Below are positions 11,121 through 55,809 of a DNA stretch of 64,000 nucleotides, piece by piece. Source of the DNA: a virus (lineage: Duplodnaviria; Caudoviricetes); IMG/VR virus record IMGVR_UViG_3300025769_000005, positions 2,085-66,084 of that record. The stretch is one strand, 5' to 3'. The first letter of the stretch is position 1. Every line of letters starts with the position of its first letter. The notes beneath the pieces were generated by a model. That model was not told the DNA's origin. It made no database searches and saw nothing but the letters and a program-made list of their open reading frames with translations. The position numbers were made by a program, and so were the translations under genes.

Positions 11121-11340
11121 GGAACTTATTAAAGTTGCTAAAGAAGCTATTGTAGATTCAGACGATGATATATCAGCTGACAGACTTAAAAATGCTGCCG
11201 CTACTAAAAAGCTAGCTATATTTGATGCTTTTGAAATACTTAACCGTATTAACGAAGAACAAAGTATGTTAGAAGAAAAACCTAAGGAAGTCAAAAAAGA
11301 AACTACATTTCGTGGTTTTGCTGAAGGGAGGTCTAAATAA
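11065..11340 (+). CDS. Probable terminase small subunit
   Basis: Small helical protein directly upstream of and coupled to terL. Confidence 0.45.
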   Translation: MNTKETKKNIIQAGHVAVEELIKVAKEAIVDSDDDISADRLKNAAATKKLAIFDAFEILNRINEEQSMLEEKPKEVKKETTFRGFAEGRSK

Positions 11341-13550: not shown

Positions 13551-15935
13551 ATGAATATATACACAAATCCAAACAGTTCTTTTCCTAGCCAAGTTGTGCC
13601 GGACGAAGTAAAAAACTCGTTGAAATATGGAGAGCAAGTTGCTCAAGCTATTGAAGGTGAATGGTGGAGACAAGGTGGTAATGGAACTAGATTTGCTACA
13701 TCATATAATAGATTTCATAGTTTAAGATTATACGCAAGAGGTGAACAACCTGTGCAAAAATACAAAGACGAGTTAGCTATTAATGGCGACATGTCTTATC
13801 TTAATTTAGACTGGAAGCCAGTACCTGTATTATCTAAGTTTGTTGATATCGTAGTTAACGGTATGACAAATAAAGTTTTTGAAATAAAAGCTAGTGCTCA
13901 AGATCCTATATCATTAAAGAAAAGAACAGACTACGCTACAGCTATATATGAAGACATGTTAGCTAAACCTTATTTAGAAGAATTAAAAACAAAACTAGGT
14001 TTAGATTTATATCAAAGTCCTAACCCTGCAGGTTTACCAGAAAATGAAGAAGAGTTAGATATGCATATGCAACTAACGTATAAGCACGCTGTAGAAATAG
14101 CTGAAGAAGAAGTTATAGATAATATATTAGCTAAGAATAAATTTATTAATATAAAGAAAAGATTTAATTATGATTTGGTAACATTAGGTATTGGTGCGGT
14201 TAAAACAAACTGGAACAAAGCTAATGGTATTACTATTGACTATGTTGATCCTGCTAGATTAATATTTTCTTATACAGAAGATCCAAACTTTGAAGACATA
14301 TATTATGTAGGAGAAGTTAAGTCACTTACTATTGGTGAAATAGCTAAAGAGTTTCCTGATCTTACAGAAAGTGAATTAGATAAAATATCTAAACAAACAG
14401 GTAACAGAGATACTTTATATGGTTGGTCTACTTACGATCCTAACACTATACAGGTTTTATATTTTGAATATAAAACATATAATAGTCAAGTATTTAAAAT
14501 AAAAGAAACAGATCAAGGTTTAGAAAAGTCATTAGTAAAAGATGATAACTTTAATCCACCAAAGTCTGATACGTTTTCTAAAGTATCTAGAAAAATAGAA
14601 GTATTATACAAAGGAGCTAAAGTAATTGGTAACAATGAGCTACTAAGATGGGAACTTGCCGAAAATATGACAAGACCTTTTGCTGACACTACAAAAGTAG
14701 AAATGAGTTACGCTATTGTAGCGCCAAGGATGTATCAAGGAAGAATTGAATCTATTGTTAGTAAAACTACTGGTTTTGCTGATATGATTCAATTAACACA
14801 TTTAAAGCTACAACAAGTTATGTCCAGAATAGTACCAGATGGTGTATTCTTAGATATGGATGGTTTAGCAGAGGTTGATTTAGGTAATGGTACAAACTAT
14901 AATCCAGCAGAAGCATTAAATATGTATTTCCAAACTGGTAGTATTGTTGGTAGATCATTAACTCAAGAAGGTTCACTTAACCAAGGTAAAGTACCTATTC
15001 AAGAATTAACTAGTTCTAGTGGTCAAGGTAAAATACAAAGTTTAATACAAACTTATCAGTATTATTTACAAATGATACGTGACGTGACCGGACTTAATGA
15101 AGCTAGAGATGGTAGTGATACAGATAAGAATAGTTTAGTAGGTTTACAGAAACTAGCTGCTAATGCATCTAACACTGCTACAAGACATATATTAAACTCT
15201 AGCTTATGGTTAACACTTAGAACATGTGAAAACATTTCTTTAAAAGTAGCTGATTCATTAAGTTATCCTTTAACTTTAAACTCTTTAAAAAGTTCTATAT
15301 CTACTTACAACGTAGGTACGTTACAGGAAATACAAAACTTAAACATACATGATTTTGGTATTTACTTATCATTAGAACCTGAAGAAGAAGAAAAAGCACA
15401 ACTAGAGCAAAACATACAAATGGCTTTACAGCAAGGTGGTATAAACCTTGAAGATGCTATTGATATACGTCAAATTAAAAATTTAAAACTAGCTAATGAT
15501 GTTTTAAAACAAAGACGTAAAAAGAAAGAAGCTAGAGAACAAGCTAACCAACAAGCCAACATACAAGCTCAAGCAGCGGCTCAAGCTGATTCAGCTGAAA
15601 AAGTAGCATTGTCAGAAGTACAAAAACAAGAAGCTATATCAGGTTCTAAAGTACAGTATGAGCAAGCTGTTAATCAAATGGAAATACAACGTATGCAAAT
15701 TGCTGCTCAAATAGAACAACAAAAAATGGAGATCCAACATCAATATGATATGGCCTTGAAAGGTATGGATGTCCAAGCTATGGAGAAAAAAGAAAATATG
15801 ATCGAAGATCGTAAAGACAAACGTAGTAAAATGGAAGCTACACAACAAAGCGAATTAATCAGTCAAAGACAAAATGATTCTTTGCCTAAAAACTTTGAAC
15901 AACCAGACATGGCATCTATGACGCCAAGTGTCTAA
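13551..15935 (+). CDS. Portal protein
   Basis: Follows terL; 794 aa; RDVTGLNEARDG segment; Q-rich C-terminal coiled coil. Confidence 0.85.
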   Translation: MNIYTNPNSSFPSQVVPDEVKNSLKYGEQVAQAIEGEWWRQGGNGTRFATSYNRFHSLRLYARGEQPVQKYKDELAINGDMSYLNLDWKPVPVLSKFVDIVVNGMTNKVFEIKASAQDPISLKKRTDYATAIYEDMLAKPYLEELKTKLGLDLYQSPNPAGLPENEEELDMHMQLTYKHAVEIAEEEVIDNILAKNKFINIKKRFNYDLVTLGIGAVKTNWNKANGITIDYVDPARLIFSYTEDPNFEDIYYVGEVKSLTIGEIAKEFPDLTESELDKISKQTGNRDTLYGWSTYDPNTIQVLYFEYKTYNSQVFKIKETDQGLEKSLVKDDNFNPPKSDTFSKVSRKIEVLYKGAKVIGNNELLRWELAENMTRPFADTTKVEMSYAIVAPRMYQGRIESIVSKTTGFADMIQLTHLKLQQVMSRIVPDGVFLDMDGLAEVDLGNGTNYNPAEALNMYFQTGSIVGRSLTQEGSLNQGKVPIQELTSSSGQGKIQSLIQTYQYYLQMIRDVTGLNEARDGSDTDKNSLVGLQKLAANASNTATRHILNSSLWLTLRTCENISLKVADSLSYPLTLNSLKSSISTYNVGTLQEIQNLNIHDFGIYLSLEPEEEEKAQLEQNIQMALQQGGINLEDAIDIRQIKNLKLANDVLKQRRKKKEAREQANQQANIQAQAAAQADSAEKVALSEVQKQEAISGSKVQYEQAVNQMEIQRMQIAAQIEQQKMEIQHQYDMALKGMDVQAMEKKENMIEDRKDKRSKMEATQQSELISQRQNDSLPKNFEQPDMASMTPSV

Positions 15936-21480: not shown

Positions 21481-24400
21481 ATGGCAGAAATTAAAAATAC
21501 CTTTTTAAAAGGTAAAATGAATCAAGATCTTGACTCTCGATTACTGCCAAACGGTGAGTATAGAGAAGCTATAAACTTAATGATTAGTAGATCAGAAGGA
21601 TCAACTGTCGGTGAGTTTGAAAATGTATTAGGTAATACTGTTATAAGAGATATTGATGGTAACGAATCTGTTGTTATAGGTCATTTTATAGATGAAACAA
21701 ATAACATAGCTTATTTTCTTTGGACTGACTTTGATAGTCCATCAGGCGCTAGAGCTACAAACTCTAATAACTGTGGTATAACACAAATAAGTTTAAACGC
21801 TCCTTACACACCTGTAATATTAGTAGAAGGTTGGTTTTTAAATTTTAATAAATCATTTCCTGTTACAGGTATTAACATGGTAGAAGATTTATTGTTTTGG
21901 ACAGACAATAATAATCAACCTAGAAAAATAAACGTACAATTAGCTCAAAACACTGGTCATTATACTAATGAAGATCAAATATCAGTAGCTAAATATGCGC
22001 CATGCGAACCTGTTATTGTTTTAGACAGATATAACACCGCTATAAACGGTACAGTTTCTAATAGCGTTATTGTTAATATAAGTGGAAATACTAGTAATGT
22101 AAAAATAGGTGATATAGTAAGTGAGTTTGAAACAATTACTATTCCTACTGAAATCACTGAAAAAAGATTTGTTGTAGCTATAAATAGCTCTACTCAAGTT
22201 ACATTAAACAAAGCAATAACAGCCACTACTTCAAATTTAAAAATTGTATTTGAAAGACCAACAATGACTAACAAAGCGCAAGAGCAAAATTCTAATGGTG
22301 CTACATCTTCAATTACTTCTGTGGCTGGCAGTGGATTAACTGCCACTTATCTTTTTAACACTGGCTTTGATCAAGTGTTACCAGAAGTTGGTATGATAGT
22401 AACAGGTCCTAACGCTACCGCCGCTAGTAATATAACTATAACATCTGTTGTTGCTAATTATGCGCCTGCCCCTGCTTCAGGTGATAGCGACTATCCTTTG
22501 GCTTATAACCAAATAACATTAAAGTTTTCTAAAGATGTATCTGCCGCTCCATATTCTTGGGTAGCAACAAATTCTATAACTATAGGTGTTAATCAGTTTT
22601 ACGATGGTAATTGGAAAGGTGATGATGCTTTTTTAGAAGATAAGTTTGTAAGATTTAGCTATAGGTTTAAATTTGAAGATAATGAGTATTCTTTAATGGC
22701 TCCATTTTCTCAACCAATGTTTATTCCAAAACAGGAAAGCGCTTTTGGTAAAGGAGAAAATTATGTAGAAAAAGACATGGACAATGCTTACAAGTCTACT
22801 ATATTGACTTGGTTTGAAAACTCTATAAACAATATATTAGTAAAAGTTCCTATGCCACAAACTAGTTCTGCGCTTATGCAAACTAAATTGTTAGTCACGG
22901 ATGTTGATATTTTATATAAAGAATCAGATGCTTTAGCTGTAAAGGTTTTAGATACTGTACCACTTTCCAGCATATCAGGTAATTTTTCTACAATAGCTTG
23001 GTCTGACCCAGTACATGGCGTTAGCTCTACAAGTTATTTAAGTTATGATTATACTTCAAACAAACCATATAAAACATTACCACAAGGTCAAACTACTAGA
23101 GTGTATGATAAAGTGCCAATTAAAGCTTTAGCTCAAGAATTAATAGGTAATAGAGTTGTGTATGGTAATTATGTTGACAAACATACACCACCAAAATCAA
23201 TAGCTTATAACGCTAGTATACAAGATAAAAAATATTATTTTCACGATACTGTTCAATATCCTTATCATAACTTAAAACAAAATAGAACCTATCAGGTTGG
23301 TTTTGTATTGTCTGATAGATATGGTAGGCAATCAGATGTTATATTATCTTCTTATGATAGTGTAGAAAATTTAGCAGGATCAACAGTTTATTCTCCATAT
23401 AGAAGCTCAAGCTTAGCGTCTACAGAGCCAGTTATTGATTGGTTTGGTGACGCATTGAATATTACTATAGACGAAGCTATAAACAGTACAGCTAGCACTG
23501 CGACTGGCGAACCAGGAATATATAACGAAGCTTTAAGACCATTAGGTTGGTATTCATACAAAGTTGTTGTTAAACAGCAAGAGCAAGAATATTATAATGT
23601 TTACTTACCTGGGTTTGTAAATGGAGCTCCAGTTAGAAATGCAGAAGACGTTAACACTGTTGCTTACATGTCATTACTTAGTGATAACATTAACAAAGTA
23701 CCAAGAGATTTAAAAGAAGTAGGTCCTACTGACTTAGAATATAGTAGTTCTGAAGTTTTATACATAAGAGTTAATAACCCAAATATGTTAACCATAGGTA
23801 CAAACGCTAGTTTAGTTCCTTGGAATCAGCAGTATTATCCTAATCTTAAAAAACAAAATATATTATCTATAGCCTCAGTAAGAGATATGGAAATAGCAGC
23901 AATACCTTTTGTTGCAAATGCTCCAGAAGGAGACTATGGTCAAGTTGGATCGCTTGTTTCTGGAAACAATACAACCCCTGTTAGTATTGGGTCTATTCCT
24001 TGGGGTCAATGTGGACCAGATGCTAGTTTATATAATTCTGACTTAAATCCTTTTGTTGGTAAAATAAGTACATCATCTAATGGTTTGTCAAATCCTGTAG
24101 GCTCTATAGTAACTCAACATAGTGTTAACAGTCCTGGTTCTGGAACTAAGATTTTATCAATGGTACCTTTTTTAAGTGTAGCAGAAACTAAACCAGTATA
24201 TTCTTTATTAGAAATATTCTGGGAAACTTCTTTACAAGGTAAAATACAAACTTTAAATAGCTTAATAAACGCTCAAGACAATAACGTAATTGGCACAACT
24301 GTTACTTCGGTTAACTTTGCTGAAAGCTTAGGTAACGCAAATGAAATAACTCCTTTTAATTTCGTAACAGGATCAAGCGGTAATATAAACACGCAACTAA

Positions 24401-25527
24401 CAAGCGCAGCAATACTTCAAGTTGTTGATCAAACAGGTGCAGATAGAACTTCAGAAAACTTATTTACTTTAACTTATAGTGGAGGTGGCGGAATATACAA
24501 ATTAAACACTAGTTCTTATTTTACTTTTTTAGCAAGTTCTGGAGGATCACCATCAACAGATATATATACGTTTACGTTTAGAACTGTTTATAACCCAGGT
24601 ACAGGAGCGGAAACAAGAGACACGTCTACTTTAACAGCTACTTTAACTAATGTTGTTCCAACTATAACTAGTTTTAGTAACCCAACAAATATAACGACAG
24701 CTAGCACTACTATAAATCAATTTGCTGGATTTAATGGTACTAATTCTAGTAACACAACTTCTAATAAAACAGCGCAACTTATATGGGATTTAAACCCTGC
24801 TCACGCAAATTACTTTGCTAATAGTTTGTTATTTTCTATGAGTTCAACTGGATTGTTAAGTGTTACAGGCACTATAGTCGAAGGAACTACTTATAACGTA
24901 GGCGTAAGACTTAGAGATTCTGATGGTTTAACAGGTTTTAATCAAGCTGTAGCTGTTATAAGCTTTACTGTTGGTGTACAACATACGCCCAAAGCTATAT
25001 GTGAAGGTAGAAAAGGCACTGTAGCCGCGGCATGTGGACAAAGTTATGCAACTTATTTCTTAGCATCTGCAACAACTCCAACTTTTTCTTGGCCTATTAC
25101 TGTTGGTGGAATTTCATTTCCAACACCTACATATAATTATAACGTTAGAAATAACGCTACAGGAAGTGGTACCTATACAACTGGAGCTTTAACACAAGGT
25201 GTAATGACTATAACACCAACTATAACATCTACAGGTGGTAGTGGTGGTGGAAGCGTATCAGCTTATTACACAATACAATATAGAGCTAATACAGGATCTG
25301 CATGGTCACAAGCTATAGACACTGGTAACAACAGCATTGGCGCAATACAAATATCAGCAAGTACTGGTTCACCTGGAACAAGTACTAAAACATTTAGTAT
25401 TTTAGGAGAATATAGAGTTGTAACAACAGATGTTGCTGGCGAAGGTTGTTCTGATGGATCTACTGTACAACTATACGTAAACTTTGCGGACGCTACATAT
25501 CCAGGAAATTGCACTGGACCACTGTAA
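21481..25527 (+). CDS. Large tail (stabilisation/nozzle-like) protein, part 1
   Basis: KMNQDLDSRLLPNGEYREAIN N-terminus, LFWTDNNNQPRKIN; Ig-like T/S-rich C-terminal domains. Confidence 0.7.
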   Translation: MAEIKNTFLKGKMNQDLDSRLLPNGEYREAINLMISRSEGSTVGEFENVLGNTVIRDIDGNESVVIGHFIDETNNIAYFLWTDFDSPSGARATNSNNCGITQISLNAPYTPVILVEGWFLNFNKSFPVTGINMVEDLLFWTDNNNQPRKINVQLAQNTGHYTNEDQISVAKYAPCEPVIVLDRYNTAINGTVSNSVIVNISGNTSNVKIGDIVSEFETITIPTEITEKRFVVAINSSTQVTLNKAITATTSNLKIVFERPTMTNKAQEQNSNGATSSITSVAGSGLTATYLFNTGFDQVLPEVGMIVTGPNATAASNITITSVVANYAPAPASGDSDYPLAYNQITLKFSKDVSAAPYSWVATNSITIGVNQFYDGNWKGDDAFLEDKFVRFSYRFKFEDNEYSLMAPFSQPMFIPKQESAFGKGENYVEKDMDNAYKSTILTWFENSINNILVKVPMPQTSSALMQTKLLVTDVDILYKESDALAVKVLDTVPLSSISGNFSTIAWSDPVHGVSSTSYLSYDYTSNKPYKTLPQGQTTRVYDKVPIKALAQELIGNRVVYGNYVDKHTPPKSIAYNASIQDKKYYFHDTVQYPYHNLKQNRTYQVGFVLSDRYGRQSDVILSSYDSVENLAGSTVYSPYRSSSLASTEPVIDWFGDALNITIDEAINSTASTATGEPGIYNEALRPLGWYSYKVVVKQQEQEYYNVYLPGFVNGAPVRNAEDVNTVAYMSLLSDNINKVPRDLKEVGPTDLEYSSSEVLYIRVNNPNMLTIGTNASLVPWNQQYYPNLKKQNILSIASVRDMEIAAIPFVANAPEGDYGQVGSLVSGNNTTPVSIGSIPWGQCGPDASLYNSDLNPFVGKISTSSNGLSNPVGSIVTQHSVNSPGSGTKILSMVPFLSVAETKPVYSLLEIFWETSLQGKIQTLNSLINAQDNNVIGTTVTSVNFAESLGNANEITPFNFVTGSSGNINTQLTSAAILQVVDQTGADRTSENLFTLTYSGGGGIYKLNTSSYFTFLASSGGSPSTDIYTFTFRTVYNPGTGAETRDTSTLTATLTNVVPTITSFSNPTNITTASTTINQFAGFNGTNSSNTTSNKTAQLIWDLNPAHANYFANSLLFSMSSTGLLSVTGTIVEGTTYNVGVRLRDSDGLTGFNQAVAVISFTVGVQHTPKAICEGRKGTVAAACGQSYATYFLASATTPTFSWPITVGGISFPTPTYNYNVRNNATGSGTYTTGALTQGVMTITPTITSTGGSGGGSVSAYYTIQYRANTGSAWSQAIDTGNNSIGAIQISASTGSPGTSTKTFSILGEYRVVTTDVAGEGCSDGSTVQLYVNFADATYPGNCTGPL

Positions 25528-25557: not shown

Positions 25558-26964
25558 ATGTCACTAACATTACAAGTAGGATTTTTTAACTCATATTACG
25601 TGAAGAGATTAGCAGATGTTCCTGACATACCTAATATTGGCGATCCTAGTTGGGACGCTCCTCAAGTTGCAGTACCTGCACAAGACTGGTACGTTGAAGA
25701 ATCTAGAATAAGAGGAGGTTATAATAATGTATCTACTGATTACGGTGTAAAAGCATATATAGTTGAAGAGCAAGCAGATCAAACACGTAGAGGATCATCT
25801 CTTATATACTCAGGTATATTCAACTCAAGAACAGGCATTAATCAAACTAATCAATTTAGTGTAGCAGAAGAAATAACTAGAAGTGTAGATCCAATAAGCG
25901 GTAGTATACAAAAGTTATTTGCAGAAGATACAAACTTACTAGTATTCCAAGAGCGTAAAGTTAACAATGCTCTTATAGATAAAGACGCTATATTTACAGC
26001 AGAAGGTTCTGCTATAACAACTTCAGGTAAATTAGTAATAGGACAAATAACACCTATATCAGGTGAATGGGGTATTGCTACAAACCCAGAATCATTTGCT
26101 GATTATGGATATGCTAAATACTTTGTTGACAGACATCGTGGAGCTGTTTTGAGATTAGCAGGTGGACAGATAACAGAAATATCAAACTATGGTATGATTG
26201 ATTTCTTTAGAGATCAGTTATCAGCGGTTACAAGCACAGGAGCAATATTAGGTTGTTTTGATAATTATAATAAAAACTATGTATTATCCATACAACCAAA
26301 CAATAGATATGACTACGGAGTATATAAAACTTTATCTTTTGACGAAAGATCAAAAGGCTGGACTAGTTTCTTTGATTTTAAACCTCAAGACATGTTTAGT
26401 TCTCAAGGTCAGTTTTATTCTACTAAGCTAAGATCAGGCGAAGATATTAACGAATTATACCAACATTACACTAACCAAACTAGAAATAGTTTTTACGGAA
26501 CTACTACACCATCATCAATACAATTTGTATTTAACCCAGCACCTAACAACATAAAAACTTTTCAAACTATAAACTACGAAGGTACTAATGGTTGGGAAGT
26601 TACAGCTTTAGTCTCTGATGAAACTGGGTTTGATGCTAGTGGCGGTAACTGGATTAACCATGTTGATACAATTGTTGAAGGTCCAGGCGCTACGCAGTAT
26701 AGAAAAATATATAGCTATGATGAAGGCGCTTATGTAGATAATAACGTCCAGTATCGAGCTGGATTTAATAGAAAACAAAATAAATACATGGCAGTTATAC
26801 CTAATAATACGCAAACACCTATTGCGGGTGAGGTTGTATTTGGTAACCAAACAACAGGTATAAAAGCTTATTATGCAACAGTCACAATGAAGACAGATGC
26901 AACTACTGATCCTAACGGATTAAAAGAGTTGTTTGCTGTAAGTAGTACTTTTGCACCAAGATAA
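25558..26964 (+). CDS. Tail (stabilisation/nozzle-like) protein, part 2
   Basis: EESRIRGGYN, GIATNPESFA, GWTSF beta-propeller-like motifs. Confidence 0.65.
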   Translation: MSLTLQVGFFNSYYVKRLADVPDIPNIGDPSWDAPQVAVPAQDWYVEESRIRGGYNNVSTDYGVKAYIVEEQADQTRRGSSLIYSGIFNSRTGINQTNQFSVAEEITRSVDPISGSIQKLFAEDTNLLVFQERKVNNALIDKDAIFTAEGSAITTSGKLVIGQITPISGEWGIATNPESFADYGYAKYFVDRHRGAVLRLAGGQITEISNYGMIDFFRDQLSAVTSTGAILGCFDNYNKNYVLSIQPNNRYDYGVYKTLSFDERSKGWTSFFDFKPQDMFSSQGQFYSTKLRSGEDINELYQHYTNQTRNSFYGTTTPSSIQFVFNPAPNNIKTFQTINYEGTNGWEVTALVSDETGFDASGGNWINHVDTIVEGPGATQYRKIYSYDEGAYVDNNVQYRAGFNRKQNKYMAVIPNNTQTPIAGEVVFGNQTTGIKAYYATVTMKTDATTDPNGLKELFAVSSTFAPR

Positions 26965-28963: not shown

Positions 28964-31900
28964 ATGACTAGAGAAGAATTTATAGAATCATTAGACGAGT
29001 CATTATCTTACAATGCTAAACAAAAACTTTTAGCTCAGTGGGATATTGACAATCCTCAAACTGAACAAGTTGTTGAAGAAGTAAAGATAGACGTTGTTGC
29101 GGATCCAGTGGATGCAACTGTAGCAACGAAACCGGAAAATGCATCCGAGATAAAAGATACGGAATTAGAATCGGAGAATGGTTCTTTGGAGTCACAAGAA
29201 ATATATCAACCGTATTATATTCTAAGTAACGATAAAACAGTTAGTAATACTTTTGATATTATAAATCAAAGAACTAAAAGATATGTTGACCAAAAAAACA
29301 TTACTAAAGAATATTTAGATAGAATTAGCGGTAAAATAGCGCCAAATAGTTTGTTGATTGAAGAAGGAAAAAAACAAAAAGAATTTTCACTAGAAAAAAC
29401 CTTAGATTACAACGAAGATTATTATAATCAAAATCAATCATCTGAAAAAATAAAACCAATAATAGATACTAGGTTTAAAACAAAAGTAGATCCTTTAGGT
29501 TTAAACAAAGATTCTAAAGAAGAAAACAAAGTTGATTTATTTAATGAAATTCTTAAAGAAGAAGAAAAAAGAGTTTTAAATGAAGACACTTTTATAAACT
29601 ATGTTGATGGTTTTATAGAAGAAAATGATTTAGATATACCTTTGCCATATTTGTATTTTAATCCAAAAAAACAAACTGGCTTTATAGATCAATATTACGG
29701 TGGAACAAAAGTTTTAGAAGAATTTGGAATAAACACTGTTGACTTTGAGGGTTTTTTAACATCAAATGGTTATGCAGAAGATTTCTTAAATGCTATTGAC
29801 TCTGGTGAATACGATCAGCAAGGTGGTGATTTAGCTAAAGAAAGAGACTTAGAAGGTTATTTAAATTTTTATACTAGAATAATGGATTCTAGATTAAATC
29901 AAAACAAAAAACTTGATTTAATTAAAGAAGATTTAAAAGGAGAAAACAAAGTAGAAATATTTGGTTCAGCACAAGAAAATCTAAAAAAAGCTCTTAAAGA
30001 TTTTAAACCTGGGGACGCTTCTTATACTTTATTCGATCAAAGTTTAATGAAAGAATATAAACAGTCTAAGTTTAAACTTGCGGCAGATAAAGATAAAGAA
30101 TATCAATTAGCTAGAATTAAATACGCAAAAGAACTAGACAAAAGATCAGATGCTATGTCTGCTGCTGCAAACATAGGTCAAATGCTTGTAGAATCAGGAA
30201 AAGGTCTTTACCAAGGTTTTGAAGATTTATTTGATTTTGGTCTTAAAATAGCGGGCTTTGATGATTCGCTGGCTATTTCTCAAAACTTAAGAATGGAAGA
30301 AGAAAGAGCTAAAGATAATTCTTATTTTTTAAGTATAACAGGTAAAACTATAGAAAAATACGCTAAAGACGATGATGGTAATTTCTTATTAGATAAAAAC
30401 GGTGAAAAAATTAAAATAGTTTATGCTAAAGATTCTGATACTGGTCAAATATACAATGTAACTAAAGGCTATAATATGGGTGGTATTATAGATGCTTTTG
30501 AATTAAAAATGTTAAATGATGAAATAGAAAAATCTGATAGAATTGAAGATCATTATTCTGCTAGAGGTTTTTTAACTACAGGAGGAAATGTAGTTGGAAA
30601 TGTAATGTCTCAGGTTATAGGACAAAAAGGTGTAGGATACTTAACAAATGCTGTTAAGCTAAAAACTCTTGCCGCTGCTAATGGTTTTACTTCGATAAAA
30701 AAATATAAAAACATACGTGATCTGAGTGTTGCTGTTGGAGGGAAAGCACCTACTAGAATACCTGTTAAAAAATCTGTAGTAGATGCTATGTTATTTCAAT
30801 CAACATACGGGGGAGCTATAGGTTACAAACAAACTTTAGATTCAGCAAAACAAGCTGGTTTTACAAATGCAGAGGCAGAGGCTTTAGCTTCTTCAGCCTC
30901 ACAAAACATGGCGGTTTGGTATGCTGCAACTGGCCCATTAAACACTAGAACTGGATGGTTAGATGGAACTCTAGGTAAATTAGGAATAAATAGAATAGTT
31001 AATTCATCTATTTTAGCTGCTAGAAAAGAATCACAAAAAGCTAGCACAAATGCTTTTTTAAATAAATCCTTTACAAAAAACTTACAACTTAGATTATCTA
31101 ACTTGTCAACAAAATTAGCTAACAATGGTATAGTTTTTGTTAAAGAAGGTTCTAAAGAATTTGTTCAAGAAAACACTCAGCAAGCTGGAGAGTATTTGTG
31201 GATAAATAAAACGTTAAACATGAAGACAGGTATAAATTTTCTTAAAGATACTTATACTGACAATGATATAAAATCAACATCTATACTTTCTTTTGTTACC
31301 GGTGGCTTACTTTCACAAATGCAAGTGCCTAATTTTAAACCTAACTCTGCTGCTCAAGTAGATAATTACATTTATATTGCAAATAATAGCAATGACGCAG
31401 AGATAGAATTAAATAAATTAGTAGAATCTGGTTTAGCAACTCAAGAAGAAGCTGATCAAATAATGAAAAACGCTCAAGCAATTTATAACAATGCAGCTTC
31501 AATACCCGCTTGGATGCTTGAAACAGATTTTGTGCTAGAATCTAGTCTTTTACTTCAAGAAAAAAAAGATATAGAATTAAGAAAAAAGAAAACTGACCCA
31601 GCTTTTCACGGTCCTGATAATGATAAATTACAAGAAATTGACAACAAGTTAAAAGAAATTAACCTTGAGGCTTTAGCTTCTACAGACGCAGCTGCTGCTG
31701 TAGAAAAAGATGTTGAAAGCGTAACTAAGATTGTTGGTGAAGAAAACATAGAAACATTTGATACTACTGAAAAGTGGAAAGCTAGATTAGATGAATTAGA
31801 TATACCAGATGGTTACGATGCAGATGCTTTGTTCCATGAAAAAGATGGCAAAATATATATTAACAAACAAAGAGCCGCTGAAGTAGAAGCTGTAACGGCA

Positions 31901-34900
31901 GCTAATCACGAGTTATTACATAAAATAACAGCTTCTTTATTTAACGATCCTGAAAAAGGTAAAGAATTAGTAGAAAAATTTAAGAAAATATTGAGTCCGT
32001 CTGAAATGAAAGTAGTACAAAAACGTATTGACGACAATTATAAATTTAAAAGAGATGATGATGGTAATATTTTATTAGACGAAGACGGTAAAAAAATTGA
32101 AAATGACGAATCTACTTATGACAAAGAATGGTTTACAGCTTTTTCTGATGCGTTAGGTAAAAAAGAAATTAATTGGTCAGATAATTTAGGTGAAAGTTTT
32201 TTAAGATTAAAAGATAAATTTTTAAATGTATTTAAAGAAAAAGGTTTTGAAAATGCTGATTTTAAAACAGGTAGAGATATTTACAACTTTATAAGAGACT
32301 ATTCTTATAACATGAGAAAAGGAAAAGGCATTGACTCTAAAGCTAAAGCTTTATTAAAGGCTCCTGTTATACTTTCTAAAGAAGTTTCTTTATCACAAAC
32401 AGCCTCAGATAAAGTACAAAATATATTTGACAATCAAGGAACTGATGGAACTTTTGAAATTATAAAAGAATATGAAGGTATGGCTAATAAAATAGCTAAT
32501 AAATACCAAGATGTTCCTGGTTTTGATAGACAACTACTTGTTGATGAAATATTAACAGGTAGGCGTGGTGTTTTAGATATGATTAGTGAGTACGATCCTG
32601 CTACCAATGTGCCTCTTGCTGCTTATATAAACAAATATTTAAGATCTAGAGCGATAGAAGCTGCTAATAGAATATTAAAACAAGAGTTTGAAACTGATGT
32701 AACAGAGGCTAAAGGTGTTGTAGCAGAAGAAACTAAACAACCAGAAGTCGTTAGTAGAAAAGTTAAAAAACCTAGCGAAACTACAGGTTTTGATAAAGCT
32801 ACTGAAACTAGAATTGATGAAGCTGTAAGTGAAAATTTTAAAGGCAATGACGTTAAGTTTTCAGATACTAAAAACGTTCCTAAAGAAGTAGCAAATGTGT
32901 ACGCAGAAAAGCTAGGTCTTAATCCACAAACAATTACAGATAAAACAAGAAATTACTCTAAAAAAGACGCACAAGGTTTAACTAAAGCAAAACAATTTTT
33001 ACTTAAAAACGCTAAAGATGATTATGCTCGTTTACCTAAATTAAAAGATGACTTTGGTAAAGGTACTTTTGTTCCTAAAAACGTTAAAGATGCTTTATAT
33101 ACTGATGGTAAATTAACAGGTAGTTTAAAAGACTACATTAATCTTATTAGAGAAAAGCCAATTAAACCTATATACAGAGATCGCGTAGGTCAAACTATTA
33201 GAGGTTTATTAAACTTAGCTATTAGAAATCGTATGCTTGAAACAGCACAACCCTCACGAGCTAAAAGATTACAATCAGGGGCTTTATTTAGCAGATCGAC
33301 TTACGGTATTTTTGATTTAAAATTAAAAGGCACGTTAAAAGTAAATACTCTTTTAACAGGGAAAGGTTTAAAAAAATCTTTAGACTTTAAAACTTTAGTA
33401 AATACTCCAGAGGGAAGAGAAGAAATAATAAAAACTTTTAAAAATGAAGTTGTTGTCCTTGGACCAAAAGAGATGTGGATGGGTAAGCGTGGTGCAAACG
33501 TATTTACTACAAGTGGTGCTGATTGGGGTATAAGCATGTCCCCTACAATAACAAGAGGACCTAATAAAGGAAAACCAAATCCTAGATATGATAAAAAGAA
33601 AGCAGATGCACTTACTGAATTAAGAAAAGGTTTTAACAAAATGCTTAATGACAAGAAAACTAAATTTGGCAAACCTATTACCTACAAGGATGCAAATGGT
33701 AATACAAAAACTTTAACTGATTTTACATTATCTTCTTATGGAACTATTTTTAAAGGCGCGCCTGAAGAAATAAAAAGCAAATCAAAAAAGTTTAATACTA
33801 AAACAGGAGCTATACACAAAGCTCTATGGAGTCGCATTGCAGAAAGAATTAAAAAAGACAAAAAACGAGCTCCAGCTATAGCTTCTTATTTAAAATTAGT
33901 AGCTAATCACACTGGTCACTGGCACAAATTAGGTGCTCAAATTTGGGGTTACTCACCTAAACCAAGAGGGAAAAACGGTACTTTGTACGAATATGAACAT
34001 GCTATGCCAGCAACGGCAGCATATTTATACCTACTAGACAACGCTATTAATAATTTTGGTTCCAGTAAAAGTAATTTTAATAAAGCTTATAAATTAGTAA
34101 TAAAAAATTATAAGCTTATTGCTTTAGACGCGTCTCAAAATGCTAAACTTGGACTAGCTAGACTAGGTAGAACAATGCCTCAAGGCTGGAATTTAATAGA
34201 CAATTTTTGGTGGCAAAGATATTTTAACGATAAAGTAGCGCAATTTAATGGTGGTATTGATCCTAGCTCTGTTGTAGATTTAGATGGTCAAACAATGGCA
34301 AATGTTTTTAAAATAAAAGCCAACGGTCAACCAACTACTGAATCTTTAATTAACGAAGCAAAAACTGCAGTTACTTTAAATGATAATACTTTTGGAGATA
34401 AGTCTTCATTTAGCAAAACAACAATTGGCCAAATACAAAACTTAAGTAATTATGACAAAGCTGCTAAAAAAGCTAGAAGTTTAAATACAACTGAAAGAGG
34501 TATTAGCGTGTTTGATTTTGATGACACATTAGCTAGAACTAAAAGTAAAGTTATAGTAACTATGCCTAATGGCAAAACATTTAAAATAGACGCTACAGAG
34601 TTTGCAAAAAATTCTGTAACACTAGAAGAGCAAGGCGCTAAATTTAATTTTGATGAATTTAATAAAGTTATTGATGGTAAAAAAGGACCACTAGCAGATC
34701 TTGCTTTAAAACGTCAAGGTAAATTTGGCAGCCAAAATATATTTGTGTTAACAGCTAGACCACAACTTGCCGCCGAAGGTATAAAAGCTTTTTTAGATGG
34801 TATAGGTTTAAATTTACCGTTAAGTAATATTACAGGATTAGAAGACGGATCACCGCAAGCTAAAGCTAACTGGATTGTAAGTAAAGCCGCTGAAGGTTAT

Positions 34901-37162
34901 AATGATTTTTATTTTGCAGATGACGCTATCAAAAACGTTAAAGCGGTTAAAGAAGTTTTAGATCAGGTGGATGTCAAATCTAAAGTGCAACAAGCTATTT
35001 TTAGTAAAACTAAAACTTTTGATAAAATTATAAATGATATTCTTGAAAGTGGCACAGGTATAAAATCTGAAGCTAAGTTTTCTAAAGCAAGAGCACAAAC
35101 AGTTGGAGCTGGTAAAGGCAAGTTTACTTTCTTTACAACACCATCAGCAGAAGACTTTGTAGGTTTAATATATAAGTTTATAGGTAAAGGAAAAGTTGGT
35201 GATGCGCAGTTACAGTTTTTTCAAGATAATTTAATTGATCCTTATAATAGAGCAGAGCAAGCCGTAACTAGAGCTAAGATAACTGCTGCTAATGATTTTA
35301 AAGCACTTAAAAACAGTCTTAAGACGTTACCTAAGTCATTATCTAAGAAAACAGGTATTGGAGGGTTTACGTTTGGTCAAGCTGCTAGAGTTGCAGTGTG
35401 GACAAGACAAGGTGTGGAAGTTCCTGGTCTATCTAAAAGAGACGCAAAAGAATTAAACGCTTTTATAGATAATAATGCTGAGCTTGATGTTTTTGTAGAT
35501 GAATTAATAAACATACAAAAAGGTAAACCATATCCTAAACCTAGTCAAACTTGGTTAGCTGGTAATATAACATCGGATATTGTTAACGAAATAAATAAAG
35601 TTAACAGAAAAGAATACATGCAAGAGTTTAATGAAAATATTGATATAATATTCTCAGACAAAGTTATGAATAAGCTTGAAGCTGCATACGGTCCTAAATA
35701 TGTAGAAGCTTTGCGTGATATTATTCGTAGAATGAAGTCAGGTTCTAATAGACCTGTAGGTAATTCAAGAATTGTAGATGGATTACTAAACTGGTTAAAT
35801 AATTCTGTTGGTGCTATAATGTTCTTAAACACAAGATCTGCAGTGTTACAAACTATATCTGCAGTAAACTTTATAAACTTTGGTAACAATAATCTTTTAG
35901 CTGCTGGCAAAGCATTTGCTAATCAAAAGCAATATTGGAAAGACTTTATGACATTATTTAATTCACCTTACTTAGTTGAAAGACGTGATGGATTAAAGAT
36001 CAATGTTAGTGAATCTGAAATAGCAGATGCTGTAGCAGAAAGTTCTAATAAACCAAAAGCATTTTTAAACCTATTACTTAGCAAAGGTTTTGTTCTTACA
36101 AGATTTGCAGATAGTTTTGCTATTGCGGCTGGTGGTTCTACATTTTATAGAAATCAAGTTGCTGCTTATGTTAAAGGTGGTATGGATCAAAAAGCTGCAG
36201 AAAAACAAGCGTTTGATGATTTCTACGCTATTGCAGAAGAAAGTCAGCAGTCAAGTAATCCAAGCAAAATATCACAACAACAAGCATCAGGTGCTGGTCG
36301 TGTGATACTAGCTTTTGCTAATACGCCAATGCAATATGCTCGTATAATAAAAAGATCTAGTCAAGATCTTGTAAATGGTAGAGGTGATTGGAAAACTAAT
36401 GTTTCTAAAATAGTGTACTACGGAGCAATGCAAAACCTTATATTTAACGCGTTGTCTAACGCTTTATTTGCTTTAGCTTTTGACGAAGAAGATGAAGAAC
36501 AAGAAGATAAAACAGGTAGAATAGCAAATGGTATGGCTGATTCATTATTAAGGGGTCTTGGTATACGAGGCGCTGCTGTTTCCGCTGTTAAAGACGCTTT
36601 AATAACTGTATATGAAGAAGAAAACAAAGAAAAAGGCGCGCCTGAACTTAGAAAAGCTATAACTGATCTATTTGGTTTTTCACCACCACTTGATTCTAAA
36701 ATTAGAAAACTAACAAGTGGTCTTAATACATTATCATGGGAACGTGAAAAAATGAATCAAGAAGGTTTTAACTTAAACAACCCTGCTTATTTAGCTTTTG
36801 CTCAAGTAATTTCTGGTTTAACAAACGTACCATTAGATAGAGCAATAACAAAGATAAATAACTTAAGAGCTGTAACAAGTGATAGTTCTGATAAATGGCA
36901 AAAAGTTGCCTTATTAATGGGTTGGTCAGCTTGGGATCTTGGTTTACCATATTATGGTGTTGAAGACAAAGTAGAGATGACACCGCAAATGATACTTAAA
37001 GAAAAGGTAAACAAAATGAAAAAAGAAACTAGCACTAAACAACAAAAAGAAACGTTGTTAAAGCTAGGACTAACTAAGCAACAAATAAAAGCTTTAAAAT
37101 ACGAAGAAGCAAGAGTTAAAAAAATAATTGAACTACAAGAAAAAAAAGATGGTAAAAATTAA
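28964..37162 (+). CDS. Giant polyvalent (probably ejected) protein: zincin HExxH, sigma70 region 2/4-like and HAD phosphatase domains
   Basis: NHELLH (~31907); GVLDMISEYDPATNVPLAAYINKYLRSRAI (~32570); DFDDTL..TAR..K..FADD (~34510-34930). Confidence 0.75.
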   Translation: MTREEFIESLDESLSYNAKQKLLAQWDIDNPQTEQVVEEVKIDVVADPVDATVATKPENASEIKDTELESENGSLESQEIYQPYYILSNDKTVSNTFDIINQRTKRYVDQKNITKEYLDRISGKIAPNSLLIEEGKKQKEFSLEKTLDYNEDYYNQNQSSEKIKPIIDTRFKTKVDPLGLNKDSKEENKVDLFNEILKEEEKRVLNEDTFINYVDGFIEENDLDIPLPYLYFNPKKQTGFIDQYYGGTKVLEEFGINTVDFEGFLTSNGYAEDFLNAIDSGEYDQQGGDLAKERDLEGYLNFYTRIMDSRLNQNKKLDLIKEDLKGENKVEIFGSAQENLKKALKDFKPGDASYTLFDQSLMKEYKQSKFKLAADKDKEYQLARIKYAKELDKRSDAMSAAANIGQMLVESGKGLYQGFEDLFDFGLKIAGFDDSLAISQNLRMEEERAKDNSYFLSITGKTIEKYAKDDDGNFLLDKNGEKIKIVYAKDSDTGQIYNVTKGYNMGGIIDAFELKMLNDEIEKSDRIEDHYSARGFLTTGGNVVGNVMSQVIGQKGVGYLTNAVKLKTLAAANGFTSIKKYKNIRDLSVAVGGKAPTRIPVKKSVVDAMLFQSTYGGAIGYKQTLDSAKQAGFTNAEAEALASSASQNMAVWYAATGPLNTRTGWLDGTLGKLGINRIVNSSILAARKESQKASTNAFLNKSFTKNLQLRLSNLSTKLANNGIVFVKEGSKEFVQENTQQAGEYLWINKTLNMKTGINFLKDTYTDNDIKSTSILSFVTGGLLSQMQVPNFKPNSAAQVDNYIYIANNSNDAEIELNKLVESGLATQEEADQIMKNAQAIYNNAASIPAWMLETDFVLESSLLLQEKKDIELRKKKTDPAFHGPDNDKLQEIDNKLKEINLEALASTDAAAAVEKDVESVTKIVGEENIETFDTTEKWKARLDELDIPDGYDADALFHEKDGKIYINKQRAAEVEAVTAANHELLHKITASLFNDPEKGKELVEKFKKILSPSEMKVVQKRIDDNYKFKRDDDGNILLDEDGKKIENDESTYDKEWFTAFSDALGKKEINWSDNLGESFLRLKDKFLNVFKEKGFENADFKTGRDIYNFIRDYSYNMRKGKGIDSKAKALLKAPVILSKEVSLSQTASDKVQNIFDNQGTDGTFEIIKEYEGMANKIANKYQDVPGFDRQLLVDEILTGRRGVLDMISEYDPATNVPLAAYINKYLRSRAIEAANRILKQEFETDVTEAKGVVAEETKQPEVVSRKVKKPSETTGFDKATETRIDEAVSENFKGNDVKFSDTKNVPKEVANVYAEKLGLNPQTITDKTRNYSKKDAQGLTKAKQFLLKNAKDDYARLPKLKDDFGKGTFVPKNVKDALYTDGKLTGSLKDYINLIREKPIKPIYRDRVGQTIRGLLNLAIRNRMLETAQPSRAKRLQSGALFSRSTYGIFDLKLKGTLKVNTLLTGKGLKKSLDFKTLVNTPEGREEIIKTFKNEVVVLGPKEMWMGKRGANVFTTSGADWGISMSPTITRGPNKGKPNPRYDKKKADALTELRKGFNKMLNDKKTKFGKPITYKDANGNTKTLTDFTLSSYGTIFKGAPEEIKSKSKKFNTKTGAIHKALWSRIAERIKKDKKRAPAIASYLKLVANHTGHWHKLGAQIWGYSPKPRGKNGTLYEYEHAMPATAAYLYLLDNAINNFGSSKSNFNKAYKLVIKNYKLIALDASQNAKLGLARLGRTMPQGWNLIDNFWWQRYFNDKVAQFNGGIDPSSVVDLDGQTMANVFKIKANGQPTTESLINEAKTAVTLNDNTFGDKSSFSKTTIGQIQNLSNYDKAAKKARSLNTTERGISVFDFDDTLARTKSKVIVTMPNGKTFKIDATEFAKNSVTLEEQGAKFNFDEFNKVIDGKKGPLADLALKRQGKFGSQNIFVLTARPQLAAEGIKAFLDGIGLNLPLSNITGLEDGSPQAKANWIVSKAAEGYNDFYFADDAIKNVKAVKEVLDQVDVKSKVQQAIFSKTKTFDKIINDILESGTGIKSEAKFSKARAQTVGAGKGKFTFFTTPSAEDFVGLIYKFIGKGKVGDAQLQFFQDNLIDPYNRAEQAVTRAKITAANDFKALKNSLKTLPKSLSKKTGIGGFTFGQAARVAVWTRQGVEVPGLSKRDAKELNAFIDNNAELDVFVDELINIQKGKPYPKPSQTWLAGNITSDIVNEINKVNRKEYMQEFNENIDIIFSDKVMNKLEAAYGPKYVEALRDIIRRMKSGSNRPVGNSRIVDGLLNWLNNSVGAIMFLNTRSAVLQTISAVNFINFGNNNLLAAGKAFANQKQYWKDFMTLFNSPYLVERRDGLKINVSESEIADAVAESSNKPKAFLNLLLSKGFVLTRFADSFAIAAGGSTFYRNQVAAYVKGGMDQKAAEKQAFDDFYAIAEESQQSSNPSKISQQQASGAGRVILAFANTPMQYARIIKRSSQDLVNGRGDWKTNVSKIVYYGAMQNLIFNALSNALFALAFDEEDEEQEDKTGRIANGMADSLLRGLGIRGAAVSAVKDALITVYEEENKEKGAPELRKAITDLFGFSPPLDSKIRKLTSGLNTLSWEREKMNQEGFNLNNPAYLAFAQVISGLTNVPLDRAITKINNLRAVTSDSSDKWQKVALLMGWSAWDLGLPYYGVEDKVEMTPQMILKEKVNKMKKETSTKQQKETLLKLGLTKQQIKALKYEEARVKKIIELQEKKDGKN
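30578..30629 (+). repeat. Exact 52-bp direct repeat, copy 2
   Basis: Identical to 7921-7972 and encodes the same peptide, TGGNVVGNVMSQVIGQK. Confidence 0.95.
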
Positions 37163-50758: not shown

Positions 50759-50787
50759 TATAATTACATGTATTAGATTTAATTTAC
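50759..50787 (-). promoter_or_regulatory. Class II promoter-like motif upstream of the ERF/replication operon
   Basis: Minus strand gtaaattaaatctaatacatgtaattata. Confidence 0.5.
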
Positions 50788-51536
50788 AGGTAGTCAAGCA
50801 CTTGCGAGTGATCTACGTTGTCTATTAATTTCTGTACTGCTTGTTTTTTTAGTTCTGATACTCTTACATAATCACTTGCTCCTGTTATACCTAAAGTTAA
50901 TGCTATATCTTTAGCTGAGTGTTTATCACAGTCTAAACCATAGCTCAATCTTAGTACTTCAAACTCTTTATCAGTTAAATGTTTTCTTAATAAACCTACT
51001 AAATATATATTTAATAACTGTATGTTATAAGGCTCAGACTTATCAGGTATTTGATACATAGAGTTTTCATCGTCTGTAGGTTGTGCGTCAATAGATAAAA
51101 ATATACTATTAAAAAACATTGCAACCATTTTTTGATCTTTACCATTGTCTTTACGTATTTCATTTAGCTTATGTTCAGGTATACGTATATCACCTCTGTT
51201 TTTATCTATAGCTCTACGTATAGCGCCTTTAATTCTTTTTGATAGAAATGATTTTAAAGTTTTTTCTACGTCTTCGGATTGTTCTAATGTTTCCCAGTCT
51301 AATCTATCTACAGCTTTTGTAAGACCTGCGCTACCTTCTTGTATGATATCATTAATACTCATAACGCCTGAAGCTTGTTGTGTTGTTGAAAACTTACGCG
51401 CTATATTTTCTACTAAAGGTAAAAACTTAGTTATAAGTTCTTTTCTAGTATATTGATCATAAGGCTTATCATCAGGCATACAAGCCTTAACGTCTTCTTT
51501 GTATCGTATGTAATTCTTTACATTATATTTTTTCAT
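50784..51536 (-). CDS. Phage sigma70-family factor
   Basis: Region 2 LPLVENIARKF...DIIQEGSAGLTKAVD...RIKGAI; region 4 VLRLSYGL..AKDIA..LG...RVSELKKQAVQKL. Confidence 0.9.
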   Translation of the reverse strand: MKKYNVKNYIRYKEDVKACMPDDKPYDQYTRKELITKFLPLVENIARKFSTTQQASGVMSINDIIQEGSAGLTKAVDRLDWETLEQSEDVEKTLKSFLSKRIKGAIRRAIDKNRGDIRIPEHKLNEIRKDNGKDQKMVAMFFNSIFLSIDAQPTDDENSMYQIPDKSEPYNIQLLNIYLVGLLRKHLTDKEFEVLRLSYGLDCDKHSAKDIALTLGITGASDYVRVSELKKQAVQKLIDNVDHSQVLDYL

Positions 51537-53929: not shown

Positions 53930-53962
53930 TATTATCCAGCTTTGTTCGTATTATGTTTGTAA
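53930..53962 (-). promoter_or_regulatory. Early promoter-like motif, copy 1
   Basis: Minus strand TTACAAACA-N15-TGGATAATA. Confidence 0.75.
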
Positions 53963-54408: not shown

Positions 54409-54409
54409 A

Positions 54410-54919: not shown

Positions 54920-54931
54920 AGTTTATTTAAT

Positions 54932-55162
54932 TTAATTGTTATTTATTAAGATTTTGTCGCCAAATAGTATATCTGCAGATGACCATTCGCTAAGATTTAG
55001 GTTAGCAAACATTACAATTTCACTAAGCTCGTATATAGTTAGTTGACTATAAACTTCTTTGTTAGCTAGTGTGTTATAAATTTCATTTACACTTGTGTTA
55101 TACTTTTCATAGTCTTTGTTTAGACTTAGTAATACTTCTGGTTTGATTTTGTCTATTAGCAT
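54932..55162 (-). CDS. Hypothetical early protein
   Basis: Start at ATG 55162, downstream of promoter copy 2. Confidence 0.55.
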   Translation of the reverse strand: MLIDKIKPEVLLSLNKDYEKYNTSVNEIYNTLANKEVYSQLTIYELSEIVMFANLNLSEWSSADILFGDKILINNN

Positions 55163-55176
55163 ATTATTGTTTATTA

Positions 55177-55796: not shown

Positions 55797-55809
55797 ATTT
55801 ATTATTTAG

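Follow-up and report, generated by a model that had tools for sequence, protein, structure and literature searches.

A diverged sigma-2-like domain within a cysteine-free giant protein encoded at the end of a phage virion gene block

The giant gene and its setting

The window analyzed here is a stretch of 64,000 nucleotides from a tailed phage (Caudoviricetes), corresponding to bases 2085–66084 of the 66,084-bp virus record IMGVR_UViG_3300025769_000005, which has terminal repeats. At 28964–37162 on the plus strand, at the end of the block of virion genes, lies an open reading frame (ORF) for a mosaic, polyvalent-type protein of 2,732 residues without a single cysteine, referred to below as the giant. 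Its residues ~1143–1240 (32390–32683, plus strand) form a helical domain that resembles domain 2 of sigma-70 factors (sigma-2, with regions 1.2 and 2.1–2.4 covered by alignment); a conserved HExxH...E module precedes this domain and a basic second domain follows it. A first-pass annotation had pointed to a sigma-factor-like domain at this place, and the strings that it quoted all fall within this one ORF, with coordinates that are right to within a few bases: HELLH starts at residue 982 (nt 31907), IIKEYEGMANK at 1166, RSRAI at 1227, VYAEKLGLNPQ at 1312 and GLTKAKQFL at 1338. The region-2-like stretch is residues 1166–1231 and the helix-turn-helix (HTH)-like stretch residues 1312–1346.

Upstream of the giant, the gene order runs from the large terminase (TerL, 11340–13550) and the portal (13551–15935) through several proteins classed as 'virion structural' in PHROGs to two crAss-type muzzle-like virion genes (21481–25527 and 25558–26964, plus strand; PHROG 14478, Pfam crAss_MUZ / crAss_MUZ_C), and the giant ORF is the last of the block. 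In cultured phages the equivalent slot is occupied by a 3,757-residue 'structural protein' in Flavobacterium phage elemo and by a 1,691-residue 'structural protein' in Cellulophaga phage phi38:1, where the label was annotated by similarity to phi18:1. In phi14:2, a crAss-like phage that also comes from Cellulophaga, the slot holds g065–g067, which are annotated as virion proteins by tandem mass spectrometry (MS/MS), with g066 being the virion RNA polymerase. The virion context that had been proposed for the giant is upheld in this sense, as the mosaic protein sits where relatives encode giants packaged in the virion.

The amino acid composition of the giant was also considered. None of its 2,732 residues is cysteine, compared with 0.66% in the other 47 ORFs (P ~1.4e-8), and the same avoidance is seen throughout the family, with 1 cysteine in the 318,776 residues of 120 giants and 1 in the 206,330 residues of 74 IMG/VR giants. 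For comparison, replication proteins of this phage contain 1–3.5% cysteine and its particle proteins 0–0.8%, while g065–g067 of phi14:2 hold 4 cysteines in 5,398 residues. We take this exclusion as a probable mark of selection on a protein destined to leave the cytoplasm and to be threaded through the envelope in an unfolded state. Near-total exclusion of cysteine is a simple sequence signature, and it may help in recognizing ejected proteins in other phages.

By terminase and portal, the nearest cultured kin are all phages of Flavobacteriaceae (87 of 87), including Flavobacterium elemo phages, Cellulophaga phi38:1-like phages, and phages of Tenacibaculum and Maribacter. Because every one of these relatives infects Flavobacteriaceae, the host is probably a marine member of Flavobacteriia, as far as cultured TerL and portal relatives can indicate it. 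Host assignment from contigs in metagenome-assembled genomes (MAGs) was rejected: 13 loci (L006–L018) lie in MAGs with mutually inconsistent labels, most likely as a result of binning errors. The labels attached to short contigs bearing relatives of the giant included Aliivibrio, Woesearchaeota, Gemmatimonadota, Parcubacteria, Ilumatobacteraceae and others, and such contigs almost certainly come from phages and were binned with cellular genomes by mistake.

The sigma-2-like domain and the other modules of the giant

The sigma-2-like domain was recognized by profile alignment, by structure prediction and fold search, and through a homologue, P0106. For the profile-profile comparison (hhalign), a 64-sequence family alignment of residues 1140–1245 was set against 31 sigma factors, that is, 30 genes that PF04542 picked out in four MAG genomes together with the phage's own free-standing sigma factor. 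The match extended over 62 columns with a probability of 82.7% and P 9.4e-6, in a register that places IIKEYEGMANKIANKY...LAAYINKYLRSR on regions 2.1–2.4, residues 381–442 of an RpoD-type sigma. Its score was 38.4, whereas the reversed alignment scored 8.9 and 120 column shuffles averaged 8.6 with a maximum of 12.6, so that 0 of 120 reached the real value. When 75 windows along the giant were compared with the same sigma alignment (median P 0.34), the two best overlapped residues 1156–1296, the next three lay within residues 1121–1471, and 8 of the 9 best lay within those limits. Alignments built from other sequence sets gave P 1.3e-4 and P 7.2e-5. Merging both sigma-like subfamilies of the giants into one alignment was tried and set aside, as it did not raise the significance (P 7.2e-5 against 9.4e-6).

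P0106 is 27% identical to the query over this region, and curated models match it directly: Pfam Sigma70_r2 (PF04542, E 0.003) and NCBIfam TIGR02937 (sigma70-ECF, E 2.2e-5) align with its residues 1308–1357, which correspond to residues ~1188–1236 of the query, with scores below the curated cut-offs (17.8 bits vs 24 for Sigma70_r2; 24.2 vs 42.9 for TIGR02937). The sigma-like pattern that is kept consists of a hydrophobic helix, D..(I/V)..G, (Y/F)(D/N)P and (L/F)xx(Y/W)I..(Y/L)..R, and a conserved block, VPLAAYINKYL..R.IE, falls on regions 2.3–2.4 in the alignment. In the ESM Atlas, the nearest named clusters of the domain are viral sigma factors of ~120 residues, with a weak score of 0.77 that we treat as a lead only.

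Two AlphaFold2 (AF2) models were made, of residues 1100–1460 (model 1) and 925–1445 (model 2), each with a mean predicted local distance difference test (pLDDT) score of 72. Both show a helical domain at residues ~1143–1238, with its helices at pLDDT ~80, then a disordered linker and a confident second domain. With model 1, the best Foldseek row in BFVD was a phage sigma factor (E 0.057, prob 0.94, 217 columns, 204-residue target), 5 of the 50 BFVD rows were named sigma factors, and 9 of the 48 PDB rows were holoenzyme F chains; chains F and L of holoenzyme entries are what we take to be the sigma subunit. Model 2 gave sigma or holoenzyme chains in 31 of 48 PDB rows, and its rows included a SigB-RpoC model (E 0.19, prob 0.96), SigA domain 2 (4x8k_A), and a fragment of RpoS spanning regions 1.2–2 (5h6x_A; prob 0.87, TM 0.59 on the target, root-mean-square deviation 4.4 over 98 columns). 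The likeness to sigma70 region 2 that had been noticed by eye is therefore beyond chance, given P 9.4e-6 in the correct register, the shuffle control, the curated matches of P0106 and two predicted folds, and residues ~1143–1240 are very probably a true sigma-2 homologue, albeit a very diverged one.

Docking on the host polymerase was addressed by complex prediction, a check that the first-pass annotation had proposed, using residues 1140–1245 together with residues 1–400 of beta-prime from Flavobacterium johnsoniae. The score was 0.55 (0.42, 0.75, 0.55), while the best of three controls reached 0.01; the partner had pLDDT ≥81 and the runs agreed in ≥70% of contacts. Of 80 solved complexes 58 attain the mark applied, as do 2 of 110 mismatched pairs, and passing scores at ≤0.60 belong to only 7 of the 80 solved complexes and to both of the mismatches that passed. 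Since sigma-2 bound to beta-prime is a kind of complex that has been solved, and the host used is a stand-in, this weak support shows likeness more than binding, and may show likeness only.

The module formed by the sigma-2-like domain and the second domain is widespread. Among 120 giants searched with hidden Markov models (HMMs) of the module, 95 had both halves, 2 had one half and 23 had neither. The one-half giants, P0053 and P0109, are the shortest proteins listed (1,578 and 1,621 residues). The HMM-negative giants belong, in 22 of 23 cases, to a subfamily in which the best of ~73 windows matched the sigma alignment at P 0.002, in the equivalent relative place, and this window matched the module of the giant at P 1e-4. 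A phmmer search with the module retrieved 327 clusters at 50% identity, 279 of them at E ≤1e-10; the best 150 of the 327 were mostly longer than 1,000 residues with the match in the middle, the shorter ones looking like fragments, and many of the clusters share only query residues ~3–135, which is the sigma-2-like part. Only 24 matching proteins were 168–536 residues long, 10 of them from contigs no longer than 1.2 kb and 8 from contigs of 8.7–35 kb, and no free-standing form of the module was seen among the 327 clusters and these 24 short proteins.

Downstream of the sigma-2-like domain, an acidic/basic linker (residues ~1245–1268, 32696–32767, plus strand; pLDDT <50 in both models) leads to the second and most conserved domain of the module, at residues ~1278–1437 (32795–33274, plus strand), which has an isoelectric point (pI) of 9.8 and pLDDT ~90 and contains the HTH-like stretch at residues 1307–1348 (32882–33007). 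The best local alignment of residues 1270–1445 to sigma factors is on the HTH of region 4.2, with VYAEKLGLNPQ on EIAE.LG.S, at P 0.08–0.12 only; windows over the HTH stretch gave P 0.05–0.07, and the would-be recognition helix is 4 residues long in the AF2 model. In group A relatives, whose whole module is homologous to that of the giant (P 7.1e-7, 213 columns), the HTH site reads ...IADQLGIPVSRI... and matches region 4.2 with P 3e-4 to 1.3e-3. The region-4-like HTH of the first-pass annotation is thus present as a sequence, but in the giant itself it does not rise above chance.

Short motifs of the form [FL]S[KRQ][TS] occur four times in the giant, at residues 1143, 1442, 1816 and 2013, where 0.5 are expected and 3 of 2,000 shuffles reach four, and all four stand at module borders. 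The first, LSQT (32390–32401, plus strand), is kept in 1 of 17 diverse homologues. The second, FSRS at residues 1442–1445 (33287–33298, plus strand), marks the end of the sigma-like module; BLAST segments end at residues 1444–1446, and (F/A/Y)SK is found in 14 of 17 homologues. For the FSKT at residues 1816–1819 (34409–34420, plus strand) the full motif is kept in 2 of 17, and for the FSKT at residue 2013 (from 35000, plus strand) the xSK core is kept in 15 of 17, the two xSK counts having been made by hand from aligned rows. A cut at residues 1143 and 1442 would yield a fragment of 299 residues with pI 9.3. Residues 1442 and 2013, with their conserved xSK core, are candidate processing sites, which we regard as a lead from sequence conservation.

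The HExxH...E module upstream occupies residues ~913–1121 (31700–32326, plus strand), as delimited by BLAST segment ends and conservation, with HELLH at 31907–31921 and Glu1055 at 32126–32128. All 17 diverse homologues share H982, E983, H986 and E1055, and 109 of 120 giants contain an HExxH. No Pfam peptidase family matched this module in the giant or the 17 homologues, and none of 48 Foldseek rows was a peptidase; in the AF2 model of residues 925–1445, the part before the HExxH helix has pLDDT <50 and the N-terminal 51 residues of the folded piece are of low confidence. The zincin that had been proposed upstream of the sigma-like domain therefore stands as a real and conserved HELLH, zincin-like by motif only, whereas a zincin fold or family match was not recovered.

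Searches with the whole giant were uninformative as to its function. Pfam and PHROGs returned no relevant family for it, phmmer against PDB chains gave a MarR regulator as the sole match (E 0.12, a chance match) and no polymerase, the giant family profile against PDB chains gave coiled-coil and low-complexity rows only, and tblastn against 50,697 phage records found no match. Relatives are numerous: a word-indexed search identified at least 1,737 among 8,000 candidates scored, and the C-terminal part was confirmed in 568 IMG/VR stretches. Coverage by 119 relatives reveals conserved blocks at residues ~850–1450 and ~1800–2732, with variable sequence elsewhere, and the ends of BLAST segments mark sub-modules at residues ~913/964–1121, which holds the HExxH, and at ~1100–1445. 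The first ~45 residues (28964–29098; MT..EY...L....) are kept family-wide and are followed by 800 variable residues; they may be a packaging or targeting signal.

Beyond the sigma-like module, conservation in the 17 diverse homologues picks out an invariant Glu1678-His1679 (EH..PA motif; 33995–34000, plus strand) in a basic domain. At 34496–34993 (plus strand) lies a HAD-like phosphatase-type domain, assigned by motif in the absence of a Pfam match, whose FDFDDTL at residues 1850–1856 is what we take to be HAD motif I; D1851, D1853 and T1855 are nearly invariant in the 17 homologues, and DxDxT[LIVM]A occurs in 117 of 120 giants. The most conserved C-terminal region, residues 2013–2732 (35000–37159, plus strand), opens with the FSKT motif and contains amphipathic and hydrophobic stretches. 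The ESM Atlas clusters nearest to the C-terminal 723 residues carry LPD39 (28% of members) and LPD38 (92%), among the named ones, which is again a lead only. Two of the 17 homologues have P-loop kinase domains and one has LysM. The added kinase domains in some homologues are of the AAA_33/Zeta_toxin type, and a kinase combined with a HAD phosphatase is reminiscent of polynucleotide kinase-phosphatase repair enzymes.

The free sigma gene and the early promoter-like sites

A separate sigma factor of 250 residues is encoded at 50784–51536 on the minus strand, as the first-pass annotation had anticipated; it matches Pfam Sigma70_r2 at E 1.8e-8 and is the only such match in the 66,084-bp genome. 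Metagenomes contain more than 8,000 close relatives of this free sigma, of which the best 120 are 94–100% identical, one being a Tara Oceans record, and this number indicates that the phage group is very abundant in the sea. Four marine metatranscriptome runs, all from one study, hold related sequence as short Logan contigs, for which DNA carry-over is possible; the contigs show no starts. Other genes of the phage (4831–6384, 41325–44463, 45618–46379 and 47250–48956) encode a Cpn60-type chaperonin, both ribonucleotide reductase subunits, a MazG-like pyrophosphatase and a primase-helicase, and a ligase gene lies at 52816–53667.

The leftward block opens with six promoter-like sites, TTACAAACA-N15-TGGATAATA, all on the minus strand (53930–58369) and upstream of the free sigma gene; 0 of 100 shuffles reach six matches. 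They were compared with the corresponding region of ten near-complete relatives (records G005–G014) that have terminases 72–84% identical to that of this phage. The motif core, TTACAAAC...GATAATA, is kept and clustered on one strand in all ten, and the free sigma is 59–75% identical in nine, the tenth record being 91% complete. In the giants of these relatives, the module HMMs detected the main type in 5 and a divergent type in 2 and left 3 undetected, one of which is homologous by hhalign. As the site is fixed while its supposed reader diverges, the module is not favored as the specificity factor for these sites, and the proposal that an injected sigma directs polymerase to six early promoters is weakened by this comparison. 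A conserved factor, either the host sigma or the free phage sigma, would fit the six sites better on this sequence comparison. The mismatch between site and module would still be compatible with a role of the module in recruiting core polymerase.

The dinucleotide before GATAATA varies by lineage, being TG in 5 genomes including this phage, CA in 2 and a mixture of AA and TA in 4. That it tracks the module type was considered, since 5 of 5 TG genomes have the main type and 4 of 4 AA/TA genomes do not, and was set aside because in 11 genomes such tracking is inseparable from relatedness. For late promoters, no TAnnTTTG was found in seven plus-strand gaps, and a candidate late word, AGATATATGTAA, was rejected as not enriched (28 matches against 20.5 expected, with 7 of 100 shuffles reaching 28).

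Interpretation and comparison with known systems

The reading that we favor, which we hold at a little under even confidence, is that the giant is a probable ejected polyvalent virion protein that carries a sigma-2-type module for docking on the host RNA polymerase. Its starting points are the homology of the domain, the architecture of the family, the position of the gene and the avoidance of cysteine described above, from which we infer packaging, ejection, cleavage, binding and an effect on transcription. The giant of this roughly 66-kb podovirus would be packed in the particle and expelled with the DNA through the muzzle-bearing tail. Between the HExxH...E module and the enzyme-like domains, it would bring in a two-part module, the sigma-2 homologue and then the basic domain of residues ~1278–1437, a piece of ~300 residues that might be freed at the conserved xSK junctions. 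In sigma factors, domain 2 docks on the clamp helices of RNA polymerase beta-prime. Inside the cell the module would likewise bind the core of the host RNA polymerase, and its action on the incoming genome would be a local one, that of a minimal starter or tether in the first transcription.

Several observations weigh against this reading. The giant itself has no Pfam or NCBIfam sigma match, even at E up to 1–10, and the residues of region 2.2 that we take to be core-binding in E. coli (Q406, E407, N409) are not kept. In hhalign, a comparison with short ECF-rich sigmas gave only P 3.3e-4 (Prob 38%), and one with the phage's own sigma gave P 0.003, with the register unchanged. The fold check suggested by the first-pass annotation did place sigma chains best in both PDB and BFVD, but with neither model did a Foldseek row reach E ≤0.001 (best E 0.057, 0.19 and 1.1). 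The second domain has no assigned fold, the prediction with beta-prime passed only weakly, and a tblastn search for the sigma-2-like piece succeeds in just one of the 10 relatives (36% identity) while the promoter motif stays constant. Finally, HMM comparisons gave no convincing homology of the giant to elemo gp72, phi38:1 gp101, the MW202828 giant or phi14:2 g065–g071, the best being a piece flanking the HExxH against g065 (E 0.012 in a set of 6 sequences); because no homology to the virion giants of cultured relatives is detectable, the virion status of the giant is argued from position and composition.

How far the sigma likeness extends, and to what use, separates this reading from its rivals. 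If the likeness were that of an ordinary helical bundle arising by chance, one would expect what is seen in part, namely Foldseek E-values that all exceed 0.05 and HH probabilities of 54–83% with none above 95%, as helical domains readily yield weak matches. Profile-profile alignment with its controls, HMM matches in a homologue, fold searches with two models in two libraries and language-model neighbors nevertheless agree on family and register, and a second subfamily repeats the signal, which makes chance very improbable. A different possibility is that a domain descended from sigma was exapted, within the capsid or the ejection apparatus, into a helical element for structure, DNA binding or packaging, without contact to the polymerase. 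Its very high divergence, the absence of a curated model match on the giant and the loss of the canonical region 2.2 residues would suit such a fate, as would the fact that the best-conserved part of the giant is its C-terminal 900 residues. We give exaptation a low, though not negligible, probability, since at least 327 clusters at 50% identity retain the domain, many of them sharing only the sigma-2-like part, the conserved VPLAAYINKYL..R.IE block coincides with regions 2.3–2.4, and the complex prediction did pass, if weakly.

The two remaining explanations keep the contact with polymerase. In one, the zincin frees a complete sigma, sigma-2 plus a sigma-4-type HTH, which takes host core to the six early promoters, and the free sigma takes the later genes. 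All of the evidence for the sigma-2 domain speaks for this as well; the six sites are genuine, all fall on one strand and head the leftward block, and the free sigma, with its gene downstream of them, cannot start its own expression. Moreover, the border motifs bracket a 299-residue fragment of pI 9.3 that is of sigma-factor size, the group A HTH aligns with region 4.2 (P 3e-4 to 1.3e-3), and there is neither a DFDxD in the giant nor a polymerase family in the 21 ORFs scanned. We nonetheless consider a complete sigma unlikely: the motif core is present in 10 of 10 relatives despite their differing module types, among which tblastn finds the sigma-2-like piece once while the free sigma persists at 59–75% identity in nine; region 4 is not significant in the giant (P 0.08) and its recognition helix has 4 residues; the zincin fold was not recovered in the models; and the junction motifs at residues 1143 and 1816 are not conserved (1/17 and 2/17). 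In the other, the sigma-2-like domain is a decoy that sits on the beta-prime clamp helices and shuts off host sigma-A transcription. The sigma-2 fold and the weak complex pass are as expected for a decoy, and divergence at the positions that we assign to regions 2.2 to 2.4 could mean that promoter reading was lost and docking kept. Injected host-modifying proteins are, moreover, an established polyvalent theme (Iyer et al., 2017; PMC5512222). The basic second domain that accompanies the module (95 of 120 giants) suggests more than simple blocking, however. To judge from N4 and crAss-like phages, an internal virion giant is also expected at only a few copies per particle, too few to titrate thousands of polymerases stoichiometrically, and a decoy seems to us as unlikely as a complete sigma.

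The most far-reaching scenario would have a large and globally abundant group of marine Flavobacteriia podoviruses replace the crAss-like virion RNA polymerase by an injected sigma that is cut by its own zincin from a cysteine-free polyprotein, loads host core onto the incoming genome and starts a cascade of two sigmas, to be carried on by the free one; we regard this whole chain as quite doubtful. What the favored reading would add is more limited. Phages are known to obtain their first transcripts from host promoters, from an injected RNA polymerase (N4, crAss-like and phiKZ-like phages), or from a host polymerase that injected enzymes have modified (T4 Alt). A sigma-type docking module within a virion giant would, if true, be a fourth way to the first transcript, in a very common group of marine phages, and the module offers a concrete fragment of ~300 residues with defined candidate sites.

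Compared with sigma-70 domain 2 (PF04542, TIGR02937), the domain of the giant is alike in its helical build, its in-register profile match and its best fold rows. It differs in that it sits in the middle of a 2,732-residue protein, scores below every curated threshold and has other residues at the region 2.2 positions named above, and in that the basic domain follows it in place of a demonstrable sigma-3 or sigma-4. A sigma-2-type domain by itself is sufficient in T4 gp55 and the small sigma-2-only phage sigmas, where it docks on the clamp helices and reads a -10-type element. T4 expresses gp55 late, as a free protein whose partners are gp33 and the sliding clamp, whereas the sigma-2-like domain described here lies within a presumed virion giant.

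With the virion RNA polymerase block of phi14:2, this phage shares a location behind the portal, head and muzzle genes, the giant size, the depletion of cysteine and, likely, a host among the Flavobacteriia. In phi14:2, g065 is an 'RNA polymerase associated protein' with an HExxH, and g066 is the catalytic subunit, with DFDxD at residue 1361. The giant has neither DFDxD nor D[FY]DxD and no HMM-level likeness to g066, and family searches of 21 ORFs turned up neither a DNA nor an RNA polymerase, in line with the first-pass proposal of an alternative to a virion RNA polymerase. In place of the complete polymerase of phi14:2, this phage carries a sigma-like putative docking domain together with a free sigma gene.

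With the polyvalent proteins of conjugative elements and phages (Iyer et al., 2017; PMC5512222), the giant shares its size, a multi-domain build, an HExxH...E module and shuffled enzyme-like domains. It is a very large multi-domain phage protein with shuffled domains, in which conserved modules alternate with variable ones over 2,732 residues, although no Pfam polyvalent-protein family matched it or its 17 homologues. The polyvalent zincin-like domain, as set out in that source, combines an HExxH helix and a downstream Glu on a three-stranded sheet and helices, to which the giant corresponds by motif only. The literature searched contains no description of a virion-borne sigma domain or of one in a polyvalent protein, a search that did not extend to the 40 novel domains in the supplements of Iyer et al.; neither their main text (2017; PMC5512222) nor the paper of Bartlau et al. 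(2021; PMC8776804) on these flavophage families uses the word 'sigma' even once. An entry role that includes the ability to 'jump-start transcription', through a fused N4-type RNA polymerase, has been proposed for polyvalent proteins (Iyer et al., 2017; PMC5512222). By analogy, the giant would work most like the transcription-starting cargo of the injected giants of N4-like and crAss-like phages, while in kind it would be a polyvalent protein.

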